This document shows, one piece after another, positions 3 through 10,665 of a stretch of DNA of 47,185 nucleotides; the first letter of the stretch is position 1, and each line of letters begins with the position of its first letter. A program made the translations under genes and the position numbers. The notes beneath the pieces are model-generated. The model worked only from the letters and a program-made list of their open reading frames with translations, was not told the origin of the DNA and ran no database searches. The stretch comes from Promethearchaeota archaeon Loki_b31 (GTDB lineage Archaea; Asgardarchaeota; Lokiarchaeia; Sigyniarchaeales; SOKP01), in the NCBI GenBank assembly GCA_005222975.1, contig NJBI01000026.1, forward strand, positions 1 through 47,185, written 5' to 3'.

Positions 3-500
3 TCCTACGAACCGATAGATGTAGAATCTGATAACTTCGATAACCTCAATAACGCCGTTAACTCCGATAGTTATGAAAGCTCTTCGCAAGCGCGAAAAAT
101 TAACGCTAAAAACCTAAAAAAAGCTTTTTCCGAGCATTTCGGCTCAATCTTCCACTACGAACATTTTAAGATGTATCAAGCTATTAAAGACGGAAATTTC
201 GAAAATTCGCTTAAAATCGGCAAAAACTTACTTAAAGAATTCCTTCTCGCCACATACAACTCCTATTATAACATTAATTGCGCGATTAAGGGCGCAGACA
301 TCAACAGATTTATCGAGTCAATATTGGAAGTCGAGAGCTTTCCGTTTACAGGAGAAGATTTACTACAATTTTTAACCTCTTGTAAAAATATTGAAGTAAA
401 CGATTCGGTAGAAATAGCCGAAACCTGTAAAAATATCTTCGAAATGTATTCTACAATAAGTAACGGCTTCAAACAATTCTTATATTTGGAGGAGAATTAA
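3..500 (+). CDS. Hypothetical protein, 5'-truncated by the window edge
   Basis: The frame of track ORF 171..500 is open back to position 3 (SYEPIDVESDNFDNLNNAV...HFKM). Its stop TAA abuts the ATG at 501. Confidence 0.75.
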   Translation, partial: SYEPIDVESDNFDNLNNAVNSDSYESSSQARKINAKNLKKAFSEHFGSIFHYEHFKMYQAIKDGNFENSLKIGKNLLKEFLLATYNSYYNINCAIKGADINRFIESILEVESFPFTGEDLLQFLTSCKNIEVNDSVEIAETCKNIFEMYSTISNGFKQFLYLEEN

Positions 501-2546
501 ATGGAACCCGACTGTTGGCACAGCGTAGTTAAAATTACGCAAGTCCCAGATATGAGCGGAAAAGACGATAGTGAAGTCTCGTGGCTTTGCGACCCTCTCA
601 GCGCGCGCGAGAACGAAGGAAATGTAGTGTATTGCACCAAATTTACGCTAGATAAAGAGTACTTTTCTTGGAAATTTTATCTAAAAGAAGAGACGAGGAA
701 ACAAGCAATTGAATCAGGGTTTTGCTTTCTGGATTATCTGCAAGAATTGTACCCCGGTTTAGATGGAAAAGTTAAGGTTAAGCCAATTTATTTAGAGCAA
801 ATTAGTAACGATAGTAAATTTACCGAATTAGTTTTGCCTGAGCCGCCATATCGTAAAAGAATAGATTTAATTAAAAAAATCGTTAATCTTTTTTGCAATG
901 TCGAAGAATATAAAGTTAAAATTTACATTTTCTGGCAGCGTTCCGACGACATAGTTAGTGAAATTAGCGATACTGAATTGGAAAAGAGGCATAAAATATT
1001 AGAAGATTATTATAAAGTCAAGATTTTTATTAATACGGTTCCAAACTCGCCACGCGCGGAAAAAAAAGAAGATTTAAGAGCAAAATTTGATGGTCATCTA
1101 CGATCTTTATCTTCTGGAATCTTAAACGAAAACAACGAGAGCGCTAAAATAAAAGAACAACCTCTTTTATCGTTAGAAAACATCTTAAACTTCCTGATAT
1201 TCTATAAGAATACACATAAACGCGATACGGGCAGATATTTTCGAAATATAATAGACGAAATTGAGGAAGATAAACTTCCCGGATTTGTGAACGCTGAAAG
1301 CATAGACTTTACAATCCCACAAGATTTTCTTTTACCTCAATCGAAAAAAATACAAAGCGAAAACGTCGGGTTTTCCTCTTCTTTTAAGAACGGACTCTAT
1401 CTCGGAAATTGGATTCGCGATGGAGTAATAAAGAAAAAACCAATGTACTTAAAATTTGACGATTTACTACATCACGTCTTTATATCAGGTTTAACGGGAG
1501 CAGGCAAAAGTTCCTTTTTTTATCACATTAAAAAAGAACTTGCTGCAAAAGCTCCGCATGTAGGAATATTGATTATTAATTTAAAGAAGAAAGGAGAAAA
1601 AAAATATTACCAAGCAGACATTAACCTTGAATATAAAGATTTGGAAGTGCCATACTCGTTTTACGATGGGAAAGGAGATATATCAGATACCATAGAAACA
1701 TTTGTTCCTCTTTTGATTGCCTCCTTAGGATTAGCTCCTTTTGTAGAACATGCTTTTATAAACTCTACTAAAGCGTATTATGACGAGCATAAAGCTTTAC
1801 CTACTGAGTTAAAGGATTTATTCCCTCCTTTACTGCTCTGGTTTAAAAATAAAGTCAAATAGGACGACGAAATAAATCAACGAACGAGAAGTGCAATCGA
1901 AAATAGGGTTATTAGGCTTTTAAATTCGCCAATACTTAACGAGATCGTGAAGTTACGTAAAGAACTACCAAGCTGGTTTAGGAAATGGAAAAGCGGTAAA
2001 GATGTTTTTATCGATTTAACCGGTTGCAAAAGTGCCGTAAAAAAGCGACTGATCTTGCTCTTAATTTTTCAAATGATAAACATCTTTACGCCAGAGCTCG
2101 ATGAACTCGATTTTAAGAAGAAAATTCTTGGAAATTTGCAGTATGTAATAATGCTAGACGAAATTGGTGATTTTTTAGCAGAAGCAAGCAGTCCAATCTA
2201 TTCAGATGACGAACATTTAGCAAAATATTACGTAAATGAAAAGTGGGAAAACTTTTTAGGCGTGTTTAGAAGTCGCGGTGTTTCTCTTCTATCGGCCGAT
2301 AATAAACCCTCAAGATTATTTGAAAGCGTACATTCGTTACCAAGCATACAAATCGTGTTCCGAACGGCACATTCCTGCAACCATTTGTTTACGAAAATTA
2401 TAGAAGAGCAAGAGTTTTTAAAAGGATTAGAACATCGAAGAGCAATAGTTGTTGATGGTGTTAACGGGTATAAATACGAAATTTTTACGCCCGATTTTTA
2501 TTATCCATATTTCCATACCAGTAGAGCAAAACGCATAAATTCGTGA
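501..2546 (+). pseudogene. HerA/FtsK/VirB4-like (DUF87-type) P-loop ATPase interrupted by one in-frame TAG at 1860-1862 (nonsense mutation, sequencing error or readthrough)
   Basis: Track ORFs 501..1862 and 1947..2546 share a frame and 1863-1946 is open (DDEINQRTRSAIENRVIRLLNSPILNEI). Walker A HVFISGLTGAGKS lies before the stop; Walker B YVIMLDE and FRSRGVSL lie after it. SD GGAGGAGA at 488-495. Confidence 0.75.
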
Positions 2547-2583
2547 ATTAAAAAGTTTTCAATTTTCAAATGGGAGGAGAGGG

Positions 2584-5500
2584 TTCTTCAGCGAATATGG
2601 CGAGGGAGGGGGGAGAGAAGAAGAAAATAAATCAGACACGGGTTCTGAGAACGAGGAAGATAATAAGGACGATTCGAGTAGTGATACCGAGGAGGATTTC
2701 GATGTTGATGGAGAGTACGATCTTGATGGTTCCTTAGATTTAAGCGAAGCAGATAAATACGATTTCGATGGATCTCTAGATTTAAGTGAAGCAGATAAAT
2801 ACGATTTCGATGGGTCTCTAGATTTTAGCGAAACAGAAAAAAATGATGAGGAAAATCAATTAGGGCCAACAGAAGAGTCTAATAATTCTAAAGAAACAGA
2901 TGAAGGTGGTGATACGAATAATAATAGTGACTCGTCTTCAGATACTTCTGAGCAAGGAAATGAATCTTACGAAAATCTCAGTTCTGAATCCTCAAGTACA
3001 ATCTTAATAAGCGAAAACAAGGAAGAGATGCAAGAATCCGACCAAGACGAGTTAGAAAAAGAGATTGAAAAAGAACTCGAGGAAGGAGTAGAGGCTATAA
3101 ACAAATATTTAGAGGAAGAGGCAGAATTTATTAACGCTTATCAGGAAATGGTGGGGAAAGCAAGGGAATTTGACGAAGAACGAGAGAGCGAAGGCGAGGA
3201 ACGTCAGAAGACCGATGAAGAATGGGAAAAAGAAGTCGAAACTGCTGCCTATACCGCTGAACAACTCTACGAGAGTATGAAAGAAATAGAAGCTAACACC
3301 ATTAATGAAGAAATTTCTGAAATTAACGAAGAGCTTGAAATTGAAAAAGAAGTAGAGAAAAACGAGGAAATATCAGAACCTCACTTGAACGATTCTAAAG
3401 AAAAATCTTCTGAAAGTTACGAAGAACTATACGAAGAAGTATATAAAGAAAGATATGAGCTCAATCAACACCAAGCCGAACCCTTGATCGAAGAGGAGCT
3501 CGAGACCGAACCCGAACCTATAGTTAACGAAAAGGAAAAAGAACAACTTCAAGAGCTGGACGTTGAGGAACAATTTGAAACCGTTCGTTTTAACGAATAC
3601 ATGGATGAGTTAGTAGAGAAGCAAAATGAAGAAGCTGAAAAATTAAAAGAACAGGAAGAGCAAGAAGAGCTAGAAGCTCAAGCAAGTAAAATAAAAAAAG
3701 CGAATTTGGAACTATACGAAGAAGTATATAAAGAAAGATATGAGCTCAATCAACACCAAGTCGAACCCTTGATCGAAGAGGAGCTCGAGACCGAACCCGA
3801 ATCTATAGTTAACGAAAAGGAAATAGAACAACTTCAAGAGCTGGACGTTGAGGAACAGTTTGAAACCGTTCATTTTGACGAATATATGGACGAATTAGTA
3901 GAAAAGCAAGAAGAAGATAAGAATATTGAAAACGATAAAATCGAACAAGAAAAAGAAAATATCGAACAGACTCAAAAAGTAATACATCAATCGACCTATC
4001 TCCAAGAAAAATTAGAAGAACAAGAGGAGGAGTTAGAACTGGATTATGAAGAAAAAGACGAAGTTGAGCAAAACCAAGTCGAATCTGCGATCGAGGAAGA
4101 ACTCAAAACAGAACCTAAACCTATTATCAACGAGGAAGAGTTGGAATACATCAAAGTTTTGGAACCTGAGAAACAACTCGAAGCCGAGCTTTTTTACGAA
4201 TTCATAGAAGAACTAGCAAATAAGCAAAATGAAGAAAAAGAAGAACGCGAGGAGAATGAAGAACAAGAAGAAATCTCCACAGAACAGAAAGTAGCTCAAA
4301 TCATGCGCGAACTCGACATACCCCAAGAAATAAACACTGGGAAGACTGAAGTAGAATCCAATAGTCAAGAAGGAGAACTAGAGCATCAAACTACTTCTCC
4401 AGATGAGGAAGTGGTAGAACAATTAGAAATAGAGGAAAGTAAAGACCACCAACAAGAATTAGAAGAAATCCTCGAACAAGTTAGAAAAATCGAGCAAGAA
4501 GCTCTCAACGAAATCGAACAGGAAGAAGAAGATTCGAATAAAACCGCTGAAAAAAAATACGAGAGAGCTAAAAGCCTCTATAAACAACAAACCGGGAAAA
4601 GACCAATTTATGCGAACAAGGAAACAAAAGGATTTAAACAGTGGTTAGAGCAGAAAAAAAAATCGGAAGAAAAAGAGAAAACGAAACAGAAGAAAGAACT
4701 AAAAGAAGAACAGAAAAAAGAAGAAGATTGGAAAACAACCTTTATAGAATGGATAGAGGAAGCTTCTGAAGAAAAATGCATTGTTGAGCTTAAATCCGAG
4801 TTAAAAAAAGCGCTTGAGACTTATAACGAGTTCGAGGGTTTGACTCGAAAGTTTATGGAATTATATGAAAAGTCTCAAAACGAAAAACTTTCTGAAAAAG
4901 AAAAGAATATATTAAAATCCTTAACAAAAAGGCTGCAGGAACTAGATCCGATCCAACTAGAACTATTAACAAGTGTTTTTTTTATTAAAAACTATATCAC
5001 CCAATATTGGTATGATTTTTGGAATACACCTCGTGTTAATCGAGTGCTTAGCAAATTTTATAAGCACATCTCACAGAAATATAAAGAGTTAAGGAAAGCA
5101 CATGAAAATAAAGAAAATTCAGAATTAATAATAAAAGATTGGATAGAGCAAGTGTCTGAAGGGGAAATTAGCCCCGAACTTAAAGTAAAGTTAAAGGAAA
5201 TCGTTGAGAACTATAGCGAACTAGAAGAATTGGCGACTGTATTCATGAAATTATACACCAAGGAACAACGCGAAAAACTCTCTAAACATGAAAAACAAGA
5301 ATTAAAGGTGTTAACGAAAACGCTCCAAAAACTCGAATCCGGCAAGATCGAACTATTTGCAAACATACGGGCTATTAAACATTTTTTAAAAGATCAAAGT
5401 TTTGACGAATTCTCGGACAAAGCACGCGTAAATCGAATCCTTAGCCATTTTTTTAAACACATCTCGCAGAAAATAATAAAATTAAAAAAAGCGCAGGAAA

Positions 5501-8500
5501 ATAAAGAAAATTTAGAAGTATTAAAACTAGAATTAGATGCTATCGAAATCGAATCCAAAGATAAGAAAGATTTTCTTGAGGAAATTACTAAGCTAGGAAG
5601 TGAAGAATCGGACGAAGAGGATTGGAAAACAACCCTTAAACAATGGATAAAAGAGGCTTCTGAGGAAAAATGCAACGCTGAGCTTAAATCCGAGTTAAAA
5701 AAAGCGCTTGAGACTTATAACGAATTCGAGGATTTGACTCGAAAGTTTTTGGAATTATTTAAAAAGGCTCAATACGAAAATCTTACTGAAATAGAAAAGA
5801 ATATATTAAAAATCTTAACAGAAAGACTACAGGGTTTAGGTCCGATCCAATTAGAATTGTTAGCAAATATTCGGGCTTTTAAAGATTATTATTATAATCA
5901 TTTGTGGGAACTTATGAACAGGTTTTTTGTTAATCGAGTGCGTAGCAAATTTTTTAAGCACATCTCGCAGGAATATAATCGTGTAATTTTAGAATATGAG
6001 GATTTTAAATACACTAAACAAGAAATAAATCTAAGAAAAAATAATAATACATTTGAAGAAAAACTCCAATTTAATAAATCAGAAATCAAAGTGACCAATC
6101 AAGAGAAAGCTTTAATAAGGGAAGAAGATCAAGCGGGAATCCCCATTCAGCGAATTTTAGAAAAAATTAACAACCATAAAGAGAATATTGAAAATGATTT
6201 CTATTTTAAAAAATCTTTTCCTCTATTTCCAACTTCAAAAGTAACACTTACCCCCCATAAACAAAGTTCTGTTGGAAGAAAGAAAAATATATCTATAGAC
6301 ATTAATAATTTAAATTTCCATAATTTACTTGACGAACTATTACTTAAGAGTTATGAAGAGTTTTACATAGAACATTTTGCTTTAAAAGTAAAGAATCCTT
6401 ATGCAAATACGGGTCGCACATTACGAGCTGTATTTATTAATTGGATTAAAGAAAGATATTCAAATGATAATCCTAAAAAAGATATATTGTTAAAAAAAAT
6501 TAATAATATTAACGAAAATGAAGAAATTGCACAATACATTTTATATCTTCTTATAAATAGTAATGTTACTCAAATTGGATTGAATTCCATCCTTTTAAAA
6601 TTTCATTTAAATGTTTCAAGGGAAACAGTTCGAACAATTGCTGAAAAGAATTTTACTAATGAAGATTATAAAAAAAAGTTTTCTAAAGGTGATGGTTGGA
6701 ACAAATTCAGTTTGCAAAACTCAGAAAATTATAAAAAATTAATTTTTTCTAGTCTATTAAATAAAGAATTATGTAAATTTTTTGAACAATATTATATGAA
6801 TACAGGTAATTATGCAAATTTTGGGAAGAAAATTACTAAAAATTTTATTGATTGGATTAAGCAAAGAAATATTAATGCTTCTAAAAAAAAAGATATTTTT
6901 GAACTTATAGAAAATATTAATAAAAATAAAGAAATATTGAATTACATTATATATCATGTAAAAAATTATATTAATTCAAATAGCCTTAATAAACTTCCTT
7001 TGAAAGTTTTTTCAAATAAGTTTACACCTTTATTTTTAACAGTTTCCGATTTAACAATACAACGAATAATTACGAAACATATTTTCCAAGGTAACATTAA
7101 TGAATTTAGGAAATTGTTTCCTGTTGGTGGTAGAAAAAAGAAAAGAATTGTCGATTTAGTTAATTTGAGTTTCGATAGTTTGTTAAATTCATCATTAGTT
7201 GATAGGTTTAGAGTTTATAAAGAAATTTTTTATACTTCAACTAATCATATTTATGCTAATCATGGAATGGAAATTACCGAAGATTTTATAAAATGGATTA
7301 ATATAAATGAATGTGATATTACTGAAAAGGAAAATTTAATAAATTTATGTAAAAAAATAAATGAAAATGAAGAGATTTTATCTTTTATTATTCACCTAAC
7401 TCTTAATACAAACTATAACCTTTCTGAAATCGCGAGAGAACTCAACTTAATCAATCTTAATGGTCAAAGAAATACAATTACAAGGATTGTAAAAGAATAT
7501 ATTTTTAATTTTGATAAAGAGGAATTTGACAATAGATTTCATACATCAGATATAGTATCTCAAACAGGTATATCTACTCATTTATGTTTAAACAGTTTAA
7601 TTGCTTTATCTTTTAATAACAATTCAAGCAATATTAAATATTACTCGGAGATTCAAATGTTTCCATCTTCCAATAAACGAGCTGATGGACTTTTTTTAAA
7701 TATTAATTCTCCCAGATTTTTCTATGATCGTCTTACCAAATTTGAAGATAGTGAAGAATTAGTAAAAATTCTAAATATAAAAAAATCTCTTTTAAATAAA
7801 TTAATTGGAGTTCAAATTGAGTTTACTAGTGATTTATCAGATGAAAACATACTAAAAAAATGTATTAAATATCAAAATAAAATGATATTATTAATAATTG
7901 TTGGAACAAACTGGAAAAATAAAGATACTAATAGACAATTTGTTCCAAATTATTCAGAAATATTATATCCCGATAGAGTTTTAGTAATCAGTCCTGGATT
8001 ATTCATTAAATTACTTAATCTTAATTCATATTTTATTCAAGAATTTTATAAAATTTTAGAATACTCTAAAAATTCTGACATTGAATCATTAAATAAGTAT
8101 AACGATAATATTAACATTAATAATAAAATTACTTTTTATGAAGTTAATGAGTTAATCAAAGATACATCATCACAATTTTTTGAAAAATATTTTTATAATC
8201 CAGAAACAGAATTAAATAGTTTAGAAATTCCTTATATTTTTTCAAAATTTATGTCTTATTGTAAAAATAATTTTTCTTCTTTAGAATTTAAAACTATCAC
8301 AAGAGGCTCATCTATCGGTACATACTATATTTTTAATACTCTACATTTAAAACAATTTAATAGTCAAATAGACATGTCGTATAATTTAATTAGTTTAGCT
8401 GATATTTTATGTAATCATATTGGTCAAGATAAAATTTTCTTTAAAAAAATTACAAAGCCTAATTCTGATGATAACCTAAGGGATAAACAAAGAAGTATCC

Positions 8501-8544
8501 TAATAGAAAGCTCGTTTTTAGACAATTATCAAGAAGAATTCTAA
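2584..8544 (+). CDS. Giant modular protein (~1,986 aa if started at 2584; 1,838 aa from ATG 3028): acidic N-terminus, helical repeats, three HTH-like modules, C-terminal PD-(D/E)XK-like nuclease
   Basis: Frame open from 2539 to 8544; SD-like GGAGGAGA at 2573-2580; C-terminal motif YYSE...KRADG...QIEFT...KKCIKYQ...LIIVG. Start position uncertain. Confidence 0.75.
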   Translation, partial: FFSEYGEGGGREEENKSDTGSENEEDNKDDSSSDTEEDFDVDGEYDLDGSLDLSEADKYDFDGSLDLSEADKYDFDGSLDFSETEKNDEENQLGPTEESNNSKETDEGGDTNNNSDSSSDTSEQGNESYENLSSESSSTILISENKEEMQESDQDELEKEIEKELEEGVEAINKYLEEEAEFINAYQEMVGKAREFDEERESEGEERQKTDEEWEKEVETAAYTAEQLYESMKEIEANTINEEISEINEELEIEKEVEKNEEISEPHLNDSKEKSSESYEELYEEVYKERYELNQHQAEPLIEEELETEPEPIVNEKEKEQLQELDVEEQFETVRFNEYMDELVEKQNEEAEKLKEQEEQEELEAQASKIKKANLELYEEVYKERYELNQHQVEPLIEEELETEPESIVNEKEIEQLQELDVEEQFETVHFDEYMDELVEKQEEDKNIENDKIEQEKENIEQTQKVIHQSTYLQEKLEEQEEELELDYEEKDEVEQNQVESAIEEELKTEPKPIINEEELEYIKVLEPEKQLEAELFYEFIEELANKQNEEKEEREENEEQEEISTEQKVAQIMRELDIPQEINTGKTEVESNSQEGELEHQTTSPDEEVVEQLEIEESKDHQQELEEILEQVRKIEQEALNEIEQEEEDSNKTAEKKYERAKSLYKQQTGKRPIYANKETKGFKQWLEQKKKSEEKEKTKQKKELKEEQKKEEDWKTTFIEWIEEASEEKCIVELKSELKKALETYNEFEGLTRKFMELYEKSQNEKLSEKEKNILKSLTKRLQELDPIQLELLTSVFFIKNYITQYWYDFWNTPRVNRVLSKFYKHISQKYKELRKAHENKENSELIIKDWIEQVSEGEISPELKVKLKEIVENYSELEELATVFMKLYTKEQREKLSKHEKQELKVLTKTLQKLESGKIELFANIRAIKHFLKDQSFDEFSDKARVNRILSHFFKHISQKIIKLKKAQENKENLEVLKLELDAIEIESKDKKDFLEEITKLGSEESDEEDWKTTLKQWIKEASEEKCNAELKSELKKALETYNEFEDLTRKFLELFKKAQYENLTEIEKNILKILTERLQGLGPIQLELLANIRAFKDYYYNHLWELMNRFFVNRVRSKFFKHISQEYNRVILEYEDFKYTKQEINLRKNNNTFEEKLQFNKSEIKVTNQEKALIREEDQAGIPIQRILEKINNHKENIENDFYFKKSFPLFPTSKVTLTPHKQSSVGRKKNISIDINNLNFHNLLDELLLKSYEEFYIEHFALKVKNPYANTGRTLRAVFINWIKERYSNDNPKKDILLKKINNINENEEIAQYILYLLINSNVTQIGLNSILLKFHLNVSRETVRTIAEKNFTNEDYKKKFSKGDGWNKFSLQNSENYKKLIFSSLLNKELCKFFEQYYMNTGNYANFGKKITKNFIDWIKQRNINASKKKDIFELIENINKNKEILNYIIYHVKNYINSNSLNKLPLKVFSNKFTPLFLTVSDLTIQRIITKHIFQGNINEFRKLFPVGGRKKKRIVDLVNLSFDSLLNSSLVDRFRVYKEIFYTSTNHIYANHGMEITEDFIKWININECDITEKENLINLCKKINENEEILSFIIHLTLNTNYNLSEIARELNLINLNGQRNTITRIVKEYIFNFDKEEFDNRFHTSDIVSQTGISTHLCLNSLIALSFNNNSSNIKYYSEIQMFPSSNKRADGLFLNINSPRFFYDRLTKFEDSEELVKILNIKKSLLNKLIGVQIEFTSDLSDENILKKCIKYQNKMILLIIVGTNWKNKDTNRQFVPNYSEILYPDRVLVISPGLFIKLLNLNSYFIQEFYKILEYSKNSDIESLNKYNDNININNKITFYEVNELIKDTSSQFFEKYFYNPETELNSLEIPYIFSKFMSYCKNNFSSLEFKTITRGSSIGTYYIFNTLHLKQFNSQIDMSYNLISLADILCNHIGQDKIFFKKITKPNSDDNLRDKQRSILIESSFLDNYQEEF
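2719..2844 (+). repeat. Three tandem 42-bp units encoding D(L/F)DGSLD(L/F)SE(A/T)(D/E)K(Y/N)
   Basis: Units at 2719-2760, 2761-2802 and 2803-2844; many differences are synonymous in the giant-protein frame. Confidence 0.9.
3424..3909 (+). repeat. Near-identical ~201-bp intragenic direct repeat (3424-3624 and 3709-3909), with a degenerate third copy near 4070-4230
   Basis: ELYEEVYKERYELNQHQ(A/V)EPLIEEELETEPE...YMDELVEKQ occurs twice, offset 285 bp. Confidence 0.9.
4720..5976 (+). repeat. Three copies of a ~120-aa helical repeat (DWKTT..WI.EASEEKC..ELKSELKKALETYNEFE...VNR..SKF.KHISQ)
   Basis: Copies at about 4720-5082, 5120-5472 and 5614-5976; copies 1 and 3 are similar at DNA level. Confidence 0.85.
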
Positions 8545-8655
8545 TAAAATTTTGAATTTTTTTTTTACAATTTTTTTAATTAGTATTTAAAGTAGTATAA
8601 AGTAAAAATATAAAGTAAATACACATAAGAGAAAAAATTTTAAGGAAAGGATAAT

Positions 8656-10665
8656 TCACAAATTTAACGTTTTAAAGAAAGACGGCAACGAATAGATTAT
8701 TTCACACTCATTTTTGGATACAACTTCAATGATAGCCCGGATTAAATAAGTGTCCCTCAATTCTTCGCTAGGTTTATATATCTTCACTTTAGATGTCGGT
8801 TTAAATTTTAACGTGTAATTTTCAGCTATACCAATCACAGTATCATCAGTTTTTACGACGATGCCAAATAATCCTAGCTCGTAGTGGGATACTATAAAAA
8901 GATATCGGCCTACTCCCCCTCCTTTCTTATTCTCTAATTTTTCAAAATGTACGACTTCCAAATAATCTTCTTGTAGTTCTTTAGGAAGTTTAATGTAAGG
9001 AATTATTTTTTTCTTCCCTGAGATGTAAGGAAATGGAGTGTAAAACAATATATTAAAACTGGAAATTTTTTTGATTTGCTCATTATATTTCTCTACATCT
9101 TTAACCGAATACGCTTTATCAAGTAATATATCTAATCGATCTATCATAATATCTTCGGTGGAATACCCGTTGAGAACAGTGGCAATATACGCTCGTTTTA
9201 ATTTTTCTATTAGTATATCGCTTCTAATTTTTAGTTTATAATCAATACTAACCTCTAATGCCTCGTTGTAAAGATTTGCTGCCAGTTGAGAATGCCCTAA
9301 AGCTAAAAAGTAATCTCCAAGCTCACTAAAAACAATAATTGCATCTAAGAAGTTTTCCTCCATATTAATACCAGAAACCTCTTCCATAATAGCCATTGCT
9401 GTCGCGACATCTTCACCTTGAATATAGAGTGCTATAGATTTCCCAATCGCACACTTTAGCTTGATTTTTTCGTCGCTATAAATTTCTGCGAGCTCCTCCG
9501 TAAAGTTATATGCCATTATTGCGTTTTTATAGAGACCATGAAACAATAGAATTAATGCTTTTACATAATTTAATGTCAAGCAAGTTTGATGATTATGGAT
9601 TATCGTTGCAAATAATGCTGCTCTTTCTAAGGAATCAATAGCCGTATTTACTCTTCCCAAAGAAACTAGAAGAAATGCTCTTAGAAATTCCATCTTTGAA
9701 ATTTCACTACAGATTAACTTTTCAACAATTTCGTAATCCTTTAAATTAGTCAATTGACCGGAAGCAATTTGTAATAATGAAATTAAGAAACCGTTGCCTT
9801 TCTTTAAAAATTTTACAGCGTCTTTCGAATCATGCTTCACGATGGCTTTTCTTGCTTGCTTAACATATTCGCGAGATATTTTTAAATTTTCAAGAAAATT
9901 AATTATGCCAGATATAAGTTTTTCTTCACTATTAGCTAGCTTCTGGTTTTCAATATATTTCTCGCAGATAGTGATTTCTTTTTCATATTTATTCGCTCCT
10001 ATCTCAAATTTAACAGGTCTCTTTTGACTATCAATATAATATGCGTCTCGGGTAACTATAGAGTCTTGTGTTACGCTGATCGCCTTTTCAATTAACCATG
10101 TTATTTTTTCCTCAGCAGGATAAATTTTAGAGCGCTCAATCATATATGAAAGAGTATAATTCAATGATTTTTTCCAAATATTTTTGAAATAATACCGCAA
10201 CTGCCTATTTGGGATTGTTCTGTGTATCTTTAATAAAAAACTTGAAAGAGATAAAATATTGATCTTCCCGCGAAAAAATAAATTTGCGTTTTTTACGAGT
10301 TTAAAGTCGTCAGAAACTAAGCTAATAGAAATTTCATCATTAAGATCTAATAATTTCTGCGACAAGGATAACAAAGACAAATCTGGGTCTTGAGCAGGAA
10401 AACGAATACCTTGTTTACTTAAGTCGTTTTTTATATTTTCAATTTCCAAATTCTCAATTTCTTCTACATTTATGAATTCTTGAAATTTGTCCTTGAAAGT
10501 GCGAGATGATTTAATTTCGTTAAAAACAATTAAGCTAATGTAATATTCAAAATCCAAATCTGAAGCCACACGCCTTAGATTTTCAAGAATATTTTTGGCT
10601 CTGATAGAATTCATGCAGATAAAGAAATTAGCATCGAACACTATTATTTCGTTTTTCTTAGTCAT
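8656..10665 (-). CDS. PIN-domain ribonuclease-like N-terminus fused to TPR-like repeats
   Basis: PIN motifs IIVFDANFF, VFNE, QDPDLSLL, LVSDDFKL; TPR-like helices such as FSELGDYFLALGHSQLAANLYNEALEVS. Confidence 0.7.
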   Translation of the reverse strand: MTKKNEIIVFDANFFICMNSIRAKNILENLRRVASDLDFEYYISLIVFNEIKSSRTFKDKFQEFINVEEIENLEIENIKNDLSKQGIRFPAQDPDLSLLSLSQKLLDLNDEISISLVSDDFKLVKNANLFFRGKINILSLSSFLLKIHRTIPNRQLRYYFKNIWKKSLNYTLSYMIERSKIYPAEEKITWLIEKAISVTQDSIVTRDAYYIDSQKRPVKFEIGANKYEKEITICEKYIENQKLANSEEKLISGIINFLENLKISREYVKQARKAIVKHDSKDAVKFLKKGNGFLISLLQIASGQLTNLKDYEIVEKLICSEISKMEFLRAFLLVSLGRVNTAIDSLERAALFATIIHNHQTCLTLNYVKALILLFHGLYKNAIMAYNFTEELAEIYSDEKIKLKCAIGKSIALYIQGEDVATAMAIMEEVSGINMEENFLDAIIVFSELGDYFLALGHSQLAANLYNEALEVSIDYKLKIRSDILIEKLKRAYIATVLNGYSTEDIMIDRLDILLDKAYSVKDVEKYNEQIKKISSFNILFYTPFPYISGKKKIIPYIKLPKELQEDYLEVVHFEKLENKKGGGVGRYLFIVSHYELGLFGIVVKTDDTVIGIAENYTLKFKPTSKVKIYKPSEELRDTYLIRAIIEVVSKNECEIIYSLPSFFKTLNL

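Follow-up and report, generated by a model that had tools for sequence, protein, structure and literature searches.

Free-standing homing endonucleases, such as phage seg/mob and the mobile open reading frames (ORFs) of fungal mitochondria, spread without an integrase and can bring along a substitute end for the gene beside which they settle. HerA-fold ATPases are encoded beside nucleases in Sir2-HerA/Nezha, DUF4297-HerA and HerA-NurA, and conjugative type IV secretion systems (T4SSs) run on VirB4/TrbE together with VirD4/TraG. Polymorphic toxin systems make use of FtsK/HerA pumps, among them EssC/YueA of the type VII secretion system (T7SS) with its LXG/WXG toxins (Zhang et al. 2012, PMC3482391). 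Asgard archaea themselves carry aloposons, described in Heimdallarchaeum, in which tandem giant proteins of 3,000–6,000 amino acids (aa) accompany a MinD/ParA-like ATPase and integration is at tRNA genes (Wu et al. 2022, PMC8813620). The locus described here, from Promethearchaeota archaeon Loki_b31, resembles each of these in part. It lies on contig C66 (NJBI01000026.1) of genome G000 (GCA_005222975.1); the contig is 47,185 nucleotides (nt) long and, as a whole, is the window referred to below. The genome comprises 3.52 Mb in 99 contigs, with 31.5% GC, and is 92% complete with 6% contamination.

Judged by its genes, the window holds one copy of a lineage-specific, multi-copy, three-gene module of Loki-type Asgard archaea. 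The module consists of a degenerate membrane protein, here called UP, a soluble ATPase of ~680 residues with intact motifs, and a giant "stalk-and-tip" protein. This structural description is secure. Every part is of a known kind, namely a HerA/VirB4 ATPase, a restriction-like nuclease and polymorphic C-termini, and the combination is apparently undescribed. That is, no description of such an ATPase with such a giant was found in the literature searched, and neither that literature nor PADLOC, Pfam, NCBIfam or PHROGs yielded a named system of this architecture, as the sequence-only reading of this DNA had expected. The curated defence models of PADLOC gave no full-component match. As to function, we read the module, at a probability of roughly 0.4, as a selfish mobile element of the homing type that lacks an integrase and brings its own motors.

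The three genes and their products

Three plus-strand frames fill positions 3–8544 of the window. They are tightly packed, as noted from the sequence earlier, and the TAA at 498–500 directly adjoins the ATG at 501. The motif GGAGGAGA, whose repetition had also been noticed, is indeed found at 488 and 2573, with three matches in the window against 0.63 expected. The copy at 488–495 (plus strand) is Shine–Dalgarno (SD)-like, and its GGAGG core ends 8 nt 5′ of the ATPase ATG. The genes listed in the sequence-only reading are real; what that inventory overlooked are the membrane-anchored pseudo-ATPase and the link between the tip and a host gene end.

The first frame (3–500, plus strand), listed earlier as an unknown ORF, is a true reading frame made up of the C-terminal 165 codons of UP, a protein of ~1,300 aa, the rest of which lies off the contig. 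Full-length UP paralogues are present in G000 on contigs C97 (an open frame of 1308 codons, 88% identity) and C16 (1258 codons, 60%), and UP orthologues lie upstream of the ATPase in loci L022, L053 and L057. In the C97 copy, four N-terminal transmembrane helices are followed by a cytoplasmic region with HerA/VirB4 landmarks, in which Walker A has degenerated to LITNGIAREREF and Walker B to IIIPNVD. The L022 orthologue, 69% identical to the C97 copy, has a language-model score of 0.90–0.92 to DUF87/TrwB clusters. Pfam finds no match in the L053 orthologue, nor in the C-terminal half of the C97 UP. By these features, UP is a membrane-anchored HerA/VirB4-like protein of ~1,300 aa that has lost both Walker motifs and is catalytically degenerate. 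Contig C19 of G000 terminates in a UP N-terminus, and L111 fuses C97-like with C66-like sequence; the left join of the window copy in G000 is not fixed from C19 or L111.

The second gene (501–2546, plus strand; 681 codons) encodes the ATPase. Walker A, GLTGAGKS, spans residues 330–337 (1488–1511), and Walker B, VIMLDE, residues 549–554 (2145–2162); all of 20 homologues have G335, K336, D553 and E554. The Pfam DUF87 model is matched with an E value of 2e-4 and 21.8 bits, the gathering cut-off being 23.2, and several homologues of 35–37% identity carry PF01935. A profile search of the PDB finds HerA 4d2i at 3e-6. The AlphaFold2 (AF2) model has a predicted local distance difference test (pLDDT) score of 77, and Foldseek matches it to TrwK/VirB4 7o43 (1.3e-14), HerA 4d2i (4e-13), the VirB4 ATPase domain 4ag5 (template-modelling (TM) score 0.62) and DndH-C 7es4 (TM score 0.61). 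By fold and motifs, the product is a true HerA/VirB4-fold motor. The HerA/VirB4-like label given to it earlier is right; the gene is not the uninterrupted one then assumed, as it contains an in-frame TAG at 1860–1862, between Walker A and Walker B. Paralogue C1 and L109, a 91% relative, have the Tyr codon TAC at this position, Tyr is at least 90% conserved there among the 20 homologues, and homologues of 675–690 residues have an uninterrupted frame. A reading as pyrrolysine is ruled out by the absence of any PylS above cut-off in G000, by the Tyr of the relatives, and by the frequency of TAG as a stop, since it terminates 309 of the 2,169 long ORFs of the genome (14%). Because no PylS was found and TAG is a common stop, the TAG is most readily taken as a nonsense change or an error in base calling rather than as a recoded codon.

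The third frame (2539–8544, plus strand), the ~2,000-aa protein anticipated from the sequence, runs for 2,001 codons from stop to stop. Its parts, all on the plus strand, are arranged as follows. An acidic arm of ~665 residues (2584–4578) proves on measurement to be 36% Asp plus Glu, in line with the earlier description, and a repeat search finds in it 14-aa acidic-aromatic repeats (42 bp × 3, 2716–2841) and ~100-aa repeats (~300 bp × 3, 3424–4235). Next comes the basic motif YKQQTGKRPIYANKETKGFKQWL (4579–4647), a family signature conserved in the giants. It is found in eight ORFs of G000, seven of them of the giant family and one an unrelated ORF of 265 aa, and also in the giants of L021, L022, L053, L057, L058 and L060. 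Then follow three helical repeats, modB (4720–6032; ~130–168 aa, ~390–500 bp × 3), which form the joint at which heads and tails recombine, and three modules of the type "YAN-G..F..WIK plus helix-turn-helix (HTH)-like" (6325–7542; repeat D4, alignment A7), seen in the DNA as repeats of ~410–440 bp × 3 at 6465–7377. The repeat families reported before are real; four are counted, instead of two. The second half of each YAN module aligns with residues 331–409 of P0044 (hhalign 91.7%, E 8e-7), a segment that overlaps a Tc3-type HTH match (364–409, below the Pfam cut-off). A PDB profile search with the modules found nothing significant. The three modules are probably DNA-binding. GC inside the giant gene falls from ~0.36 (2000–5000) to ~0.23 (6000–8500), and the drop coincides with the head–tail joint.

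The tip of the giant comprises a restriction-endonuclease (REase)-like domain of the PD-(D/E)XK type (7522–8124) and a C-terminal winged-helix domain (8212–8541), both on the plus strand. The PD-(D/E)XK-like C-terminus of the sequence-only reading is borne out in its fold and conserved acidic residues; the nuclease is not the extreme terminus, as the winged helix comes after it. When the last 359 residues of the giant were used as the query of an exhaustive search, 95 clusters were matched, and the first ~240 residues of the query align at or near the C-terminal end of the matched proteins, which are 92 to 3,037 residues long. The AF2 model of the tip, built from 38 of the 95 clusters, has a pLDDT of 90. 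In the ESM Atlas, model residues 20–220 match Eco47II/EcoO109I, PDDEXK_4 and YhgA-type structures, with TM scores, by the matched model, of 0.27–0.55. For residues 1–230, nearly all structural matches are PD-(D/E)XK nucleases, with individual scores that are modest. The top REase-fold match in the PDB is the DUF4297 nuclease of HerA-DUF4297 (9c1m_G, Z 6.1, 126 residues), a rank tied with other nucleases; AF1548 (1y88) follows with Z 5.8, and Can2, McrC, R2 endonuclease, Bse634I, SgrAI, Cfr10I and others with Z 4.3–5.6. The fold assignment is based on VIA-align and the atlas search; Foldseek against the PDB found no match at E ≤0.001, the best being 0.06 or weaker. Among the 38 aligned sequences, and with residues numbered from the ATG at 3028, E1541 is conserved in 31, D1553 in 33, D/E1598 in 30 and T1600 in 35. 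The winged helix, model residues 250–359, matches TcpK (5vfx, Z 8.4, root-mean-square deviation 3.1, 90 residues), with further matches to the winged helices of Cdt1, ORC and Rep.

Eight relatives of the REase-like domain are membrane proteins (P0052, P0067, P0072, P0078, P0079, P0099, P0108 and P0116), in which the domain is a predicted cytoplasmic tail, ~110–200 residues after a hydrophobic helix. An N-terminal hydrophobic segment is present in five of the eight, and Pfam, run on two of them, finds LamG in P0072 and Ig in P0099. These eight would be surface receptors with an intracellular nuclease-like domain.

Copies, exchanged tips and distribution

The ATPase has copies in G000 on contigs C66, C1, C96 and C97 (94% identity, at the ends of contigs) and a distant paralogue, of 28–30% identity, on C13. 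The giants are more numerous, with ~10 paralogues in the genome, many of them at contig ends, and it is in their tips that they differ. LAGLIDADG_3 tips are found in paralogues C96, C13 and C5, a DUF4379 zinc ribbon plus CapR in C75, and REase-like tips in C66 and C41; the tips of C1, C35, C54 and C29 are of no recognised kind. The idea that the C-terminus is exchangeable is thereby upheld, the more so as a sister species carries the tail of the window giant on another head (see below). Tips vary, and a nuclease fold is among them, so that the C-terminus is neither invariant nor foreign to nucleases. Because giants outnumber motors in G000, some giants would be orphan, decayed or served in trans. 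No ATPase or UP gene lies beside the giants at C35:17219–21067, C5:15207–18176 and C75:125734–128843, and the giant at C54:2–4816 begins at the contig end.

Of the relatives sampled, 11 of the 36 other genus members and 5 of 24 more distant genomes carry the ATPase. Directly 3′ of its gene, 12 of 15 loci of relatives have a long ORF in the same direction, so that the pairing of ATPase and giant, proposed from this one locus, recurs. A homologous pair is also present in G055, a one-contig genome of 6.04 Mb from the same order, with an ATPase of 859 aa and a giant of 1,823 aa. The recurrent gene order is TPR protein, UP, ATPase, giant. Around a second ATPase subfamily, small membrane proteins, one of them weakly M50-peptidase-like, replace UP. 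A single-protein search for related loci gave only one in the genome collection and five in the metagenome collection.

Two loci with other surroundings deserve mention. At L062 (G019:C72, 2216–7252), a paralogous ATPase gene with an internal TAA lies directly 3′ of a gene for a 993-aa SIR2_2 plus TPR protein, a neighbourhood that recalls Sir2-HerA defence pairs. At L025, an ENA scaffold, a distant ATPase homologue of 911 aa has TFIIB-like genes, a prepilin peptidase (A24), a T2SSE ATPase and small Arf/Ras-like GTPases nearby; the context is different and the ATPase clade is the same.

A layout in which a HerA-fold ATPase gene stands beside a nuclease gene is that of Sir2-HerA/Nezha, DUF4297-HerA and HerA-NurA. 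It brings up HerA-nuclease antiviral defence, in which an ATPase hexamer would activate the giant as in HerA-DUF4297 or Sir2-HerA, with the arm as autoinhibitor or DNA mimic. By PDB profile search and Foldseek, the ATPase resembles HerA as found in complex with Sir2 and with DUF4297, the tip fold lies near DUF4297/Cap4-type nucleases, with the tied 9c1m_G as its best REase-fold match, and a paralogous ATPase is found beside a SIR2_2-TPR protein. Effector-domain swapping is typical of defence systems. PADLOC matches to mad8 (3e-9) and HerA (1.5e-5) point the same way, but all are weak and none is to the giant or UP. The HerA-effector complexes also lack what sets this module apart, namely a giant modular effector, an added membrane pseudo-ATPase, a multi-copy mosaic and an association with host gene ends. 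Moreover, a genome with ~10 giants and at least four motor loci, in which giants outnumber motors, is not what defence would lead one to expect; the tips are of homing-endonuclease families and come with modules that read sites, the end of a host gene goes with the tip, and the neighbours in the window are housekeeping genes rather than a defence island. We regard defence as rather improbable.

A constant head and repeats joined to a recombining, variable C-terminal nuclease, with a membrane FtsK/HerA motor bearing degenerate ATPase domains encoded next to it, is the layout of polymorphic toxins (PMC3482391). In that case the giant would be a polymorphic nuclease effector, and UP and the ATPase would act like EssC/VirD4-VirB4 to export it against neighbouring cells. 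FtsK/HerA-family pumps with degenerate domains do power T7SS toxin export (PMC3482391), the top fold match of the ATPase is VirB4/TrwK of a T4SS, and UP has its four transmembrane helices. However, no immunity-like gene follows the tip. No co-directional ORF comes after the giant at all, as had been remarked from the sequence, and the next gene (8656–10665) is a convergent, conserved core gene. The giant has no signal peptide, no transmembrane or hydrophobic segment and no recognised trafficking domain (Sec, WXG/LXG, PAAR), and no WXG/LXG protein, pilin, VirB6 or other secretion component was recognised in the window, the orthologous loci or the flank. LAGLIDADG tips and HTH arrays suggest site-specific rather than general cutters; both, like the archaeal host, depart from the toxin systems, and the word LAGLIDADG is absent from the first 300,000 of the ~358,000 characters of the survey (PMC3482391). 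Finally, the REase-like domain is predicted to be cytoplasmic in its membrane-protein relatives. Export is unlikely on this balance.

Likeness to conjugative T4SSs and to the archaeal DNA-transfer systems Ced and Ted goes beyond the best folds of the ATPase, VirB4/TrwK, in that a soluble and a membrane-anchored member of one superfamily, found together here, recall VirB4 and a coupling protein. The differences are that no CedA-like genes are recognised here and that the membrane member is without Walker A and B. By Pfam, no relaxase, active coupling protein, VirB3/6/8 or pilin was found in the window, the left flank or the orthologous loci; divergent ones could escape Pfam. With aloposons, the module shares the character of an Asgard element built around a giant gene of obscure function. 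Identity with them is ruled out, as there is a single giant, the ATPase is of HerA/VirB4 type, and no tRNA lies in the window (scans for tRNAs and for Rfam families gave no match there).

A host gene end and the homing reading

The evidence that bears most directly on mobility comes from a comparison with G005, a sister species, in which the relevant contig is C67 (locus L057). The G005 giant is chimeric. Its head is 78% identical to the C35 giant of G000, and its tail, from the helical repeats onward, is 84% identical in aa and 92.5% in nt to that of the window. The G005 ATPase and UP are only 35% and 43% identical. Heads and tips, as judged from such joints, recombine within the modB repeats.

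The block common to the window and G005 extends from 5404 to 8880, that is, through the spacer and into the next gene. This gene, called X (8656–10665, minus strand), is convergent to the giant, which stops at 8544, and its last ~80 codons (8656–8896, minus strand) are shared with the G005 tail block. X is a conserved host gene, and the order g615-MobB-X is kept in 30 of 30 genus loci. Among 40 genomes with X, a giant follows it only in G000 and on C67 of G005. In G005, the full X gene lies on another contig, and C67 carries two distinct copies of the last 77–79 codons of X (3–242 and 1749–1982), in direct orientation. One adjoins the giant tip, the other is 1.5 kb away, and between them is a gene for a 338-aa permease-like protein without a G000 orthologue. 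Such a pair could reflect insertions that recurred, each with a substitute for the gene end, or else a strain polymorphism. Compared with G027, X of G000 has 96.2% identity over its last 236 nt and 87.7% over the adjacent 865 nt. This difference between the end and the adjacent body indicates an exchange of the X gene end, with a recombination breakpoint that would lie near codon 590. In relatives that lack the cassette, what lies downstream of X is not closely matched anywhere in G000, and therefore no clean empty site can be reconstructed.

The homing reading is based on tips of homing-endonuclease kinds, on the absence of an integrase and of an immunity gene, on the behaviour of the host gene end, and on the patchy and multi-copy distribution. 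A search of the left flank for integration genes was suggested with the earlier description; done on a cassette 96–98% identical to that of the window, it recognised no integrase or transposase. We suggest that the predicted tip nuclease would cut element-free chromosomes at a matching site, within the end of the host gene or close to it, and that repair would then copy in the tail, or else the complete cassette, along with a replacement for that gene end. The transfer of DNA or protein, or the handling of the cut DNA, may be the task of the acidic stalk and of the two motors of conjugation type.

Free-standing homing endonucleases provide a close parallel to this scheme. The tip families LAGLIDADG and PD-(D/E)XK-like are shared with them, and here, too, there is no integrase. 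Like a homing cassette that replaces the end of its host gene, the module has its tip against a host gene end that is duplicated or apparently exchanged in relatives, and it would likewise occupy a conserved site in some genomes and leave it free in others. Unlike in those enzymes, the nuclease here is the last 15–20% of a 1,300–2,000-aa protein with a huge acidic arm, and the cassette adds two HerA/VirB4-type motor genes. A bolder form of the proposal joins homing and cell-to-cell transfer in one integrase-free cassette, with the nuclease displayed on a stalk and served by a motor pair, one dead in the membrane and one active; it is conceivable, and we hold it only tentatively. In this combined scheme, nuclease tips would be swapped so as to invade new sites.

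Several points weigh against homing. The rest of G000 yielded no displaced X end, and the left end of the window copy is off the contig. At 92.5% nt identity, the tail has diverged just as far as gene X, and therefore vertical inheritance of the tail, with a replacement of the head alone, would account for it. In G005, the duplicated X end flanks the permease-like gene, not the cassette, so that it could have arisen by some other event. At the third catalytic position, the tip reads E-x-T, not E-x-K, and a conserved K1611/K1614-Y-Q lies in the helix after E1598-x-T1600. PD-(D/E)XK variants with a migrated Lys exist. The conserved residues of the tip resemble those of PD-(D/E)XK enzymes except for the missing canonical Lys, and the tip is a putative nuclease. 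The type-I membrane-protein relatives of its REase-like domain would fit a signalling or effector role equally well. Homing endonucleases require neither a 700-residue acidic arm nor motors, and cleavage, mobility and transfer by the module are all proposals. Since its ATPase gene has a premature TAG, the window copy may be disabled.

The possibility that the tail was vertically inherited would also suit a cellular, non-selfish role, such as Ced-like DNA uptake or exchange, or chromosome handling, with the giants as fast-evolving paralogues. The weak NCBIfam match of the ATPase to the DNA-translocating ATPase CedD (E 0.0019) agrees with it, as does the distant homologue beside a prepilin peptidase and a T2SSE ATPase. 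Against this role are the patchy occurrence in 11 of 36 other genus genomes and the mosaic and broken state of the copies; nor does a constant role predict variable nuclease tips. It strikes us as quite improbable.

If the homing reading is true, the module would be a new route of DNA spreading in the archaeal lineage nearest to eukaryotes, one that combines homing nucleases with conjugation-type motors and a giant protein of exchangeable tips, and has no integrase or relaxase. It would also explain the poor assembly at such loci, the duplicated and replaced gene ends, and many of the "giant hypothetical proteins" of Asgard archaea. Whatever the function, the tips constitute a natural set of modular, probably site-specific putative nucleases.

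The start of the giant frame and further features

The giant presents an archaeal translation puzzle, since its gene, conserved and 2,000 codons long, is preceded by a strong ribosome-binding site yet lacks a canonical start codon. No ATG, GTG or TTG occurs in frame between 2539 and 3028, where the first canonical start is found, and the same gap is seen in the close relatives C1, C96, L022, L109 and L110. Ahead of the frame lies the second, conserved copy of the SD-like GGAGGAGA (2573–2580, plus strand), and an in-frame TTC TTC (2584–2589) is at SD distance from it. The sequence GGAGGAGAGG(G/A)TTCTTCAGCGAATA(T/C)GGCG is conserved in C66, C1, C96 and four metagenomic relatives; from the TTC TTC it encodes FFSEYGEG, and its T/C difference is synonymous in the giant frame. 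More distant giant homologues have a normal ATG at the position aligned to FFSEYG. The N-terminus is thus probably near 2584. An ATG at 2570 is ruled out as the start, being out of frame and replaced by GTG, ATT or GTA in relatives. The relation of the ATPase and giant frames is +1 in C66 and C1 and the same frame in C96 and L022; because it varies between copies, neither fusion nor read-through explains the giant start. What is left would be either a novel mode of initiation or an event at the RNA level.

For the giant as a whole, Pfam, NCBIfam, PADLOC and PHROGs gave nothing usable, with no Pfam match above threshold, and an ESM Atlas search with residues 500–1000 gave no usable match. A predicted complex of the ATPase with giant residues 1–100 scored 0.00, which speaks neither for nor against binding. 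The other genes of the window are ordinary and include those for MobB, an AIR-synthase-like protein, a CoA ligase, an MFS protein and CdhD.

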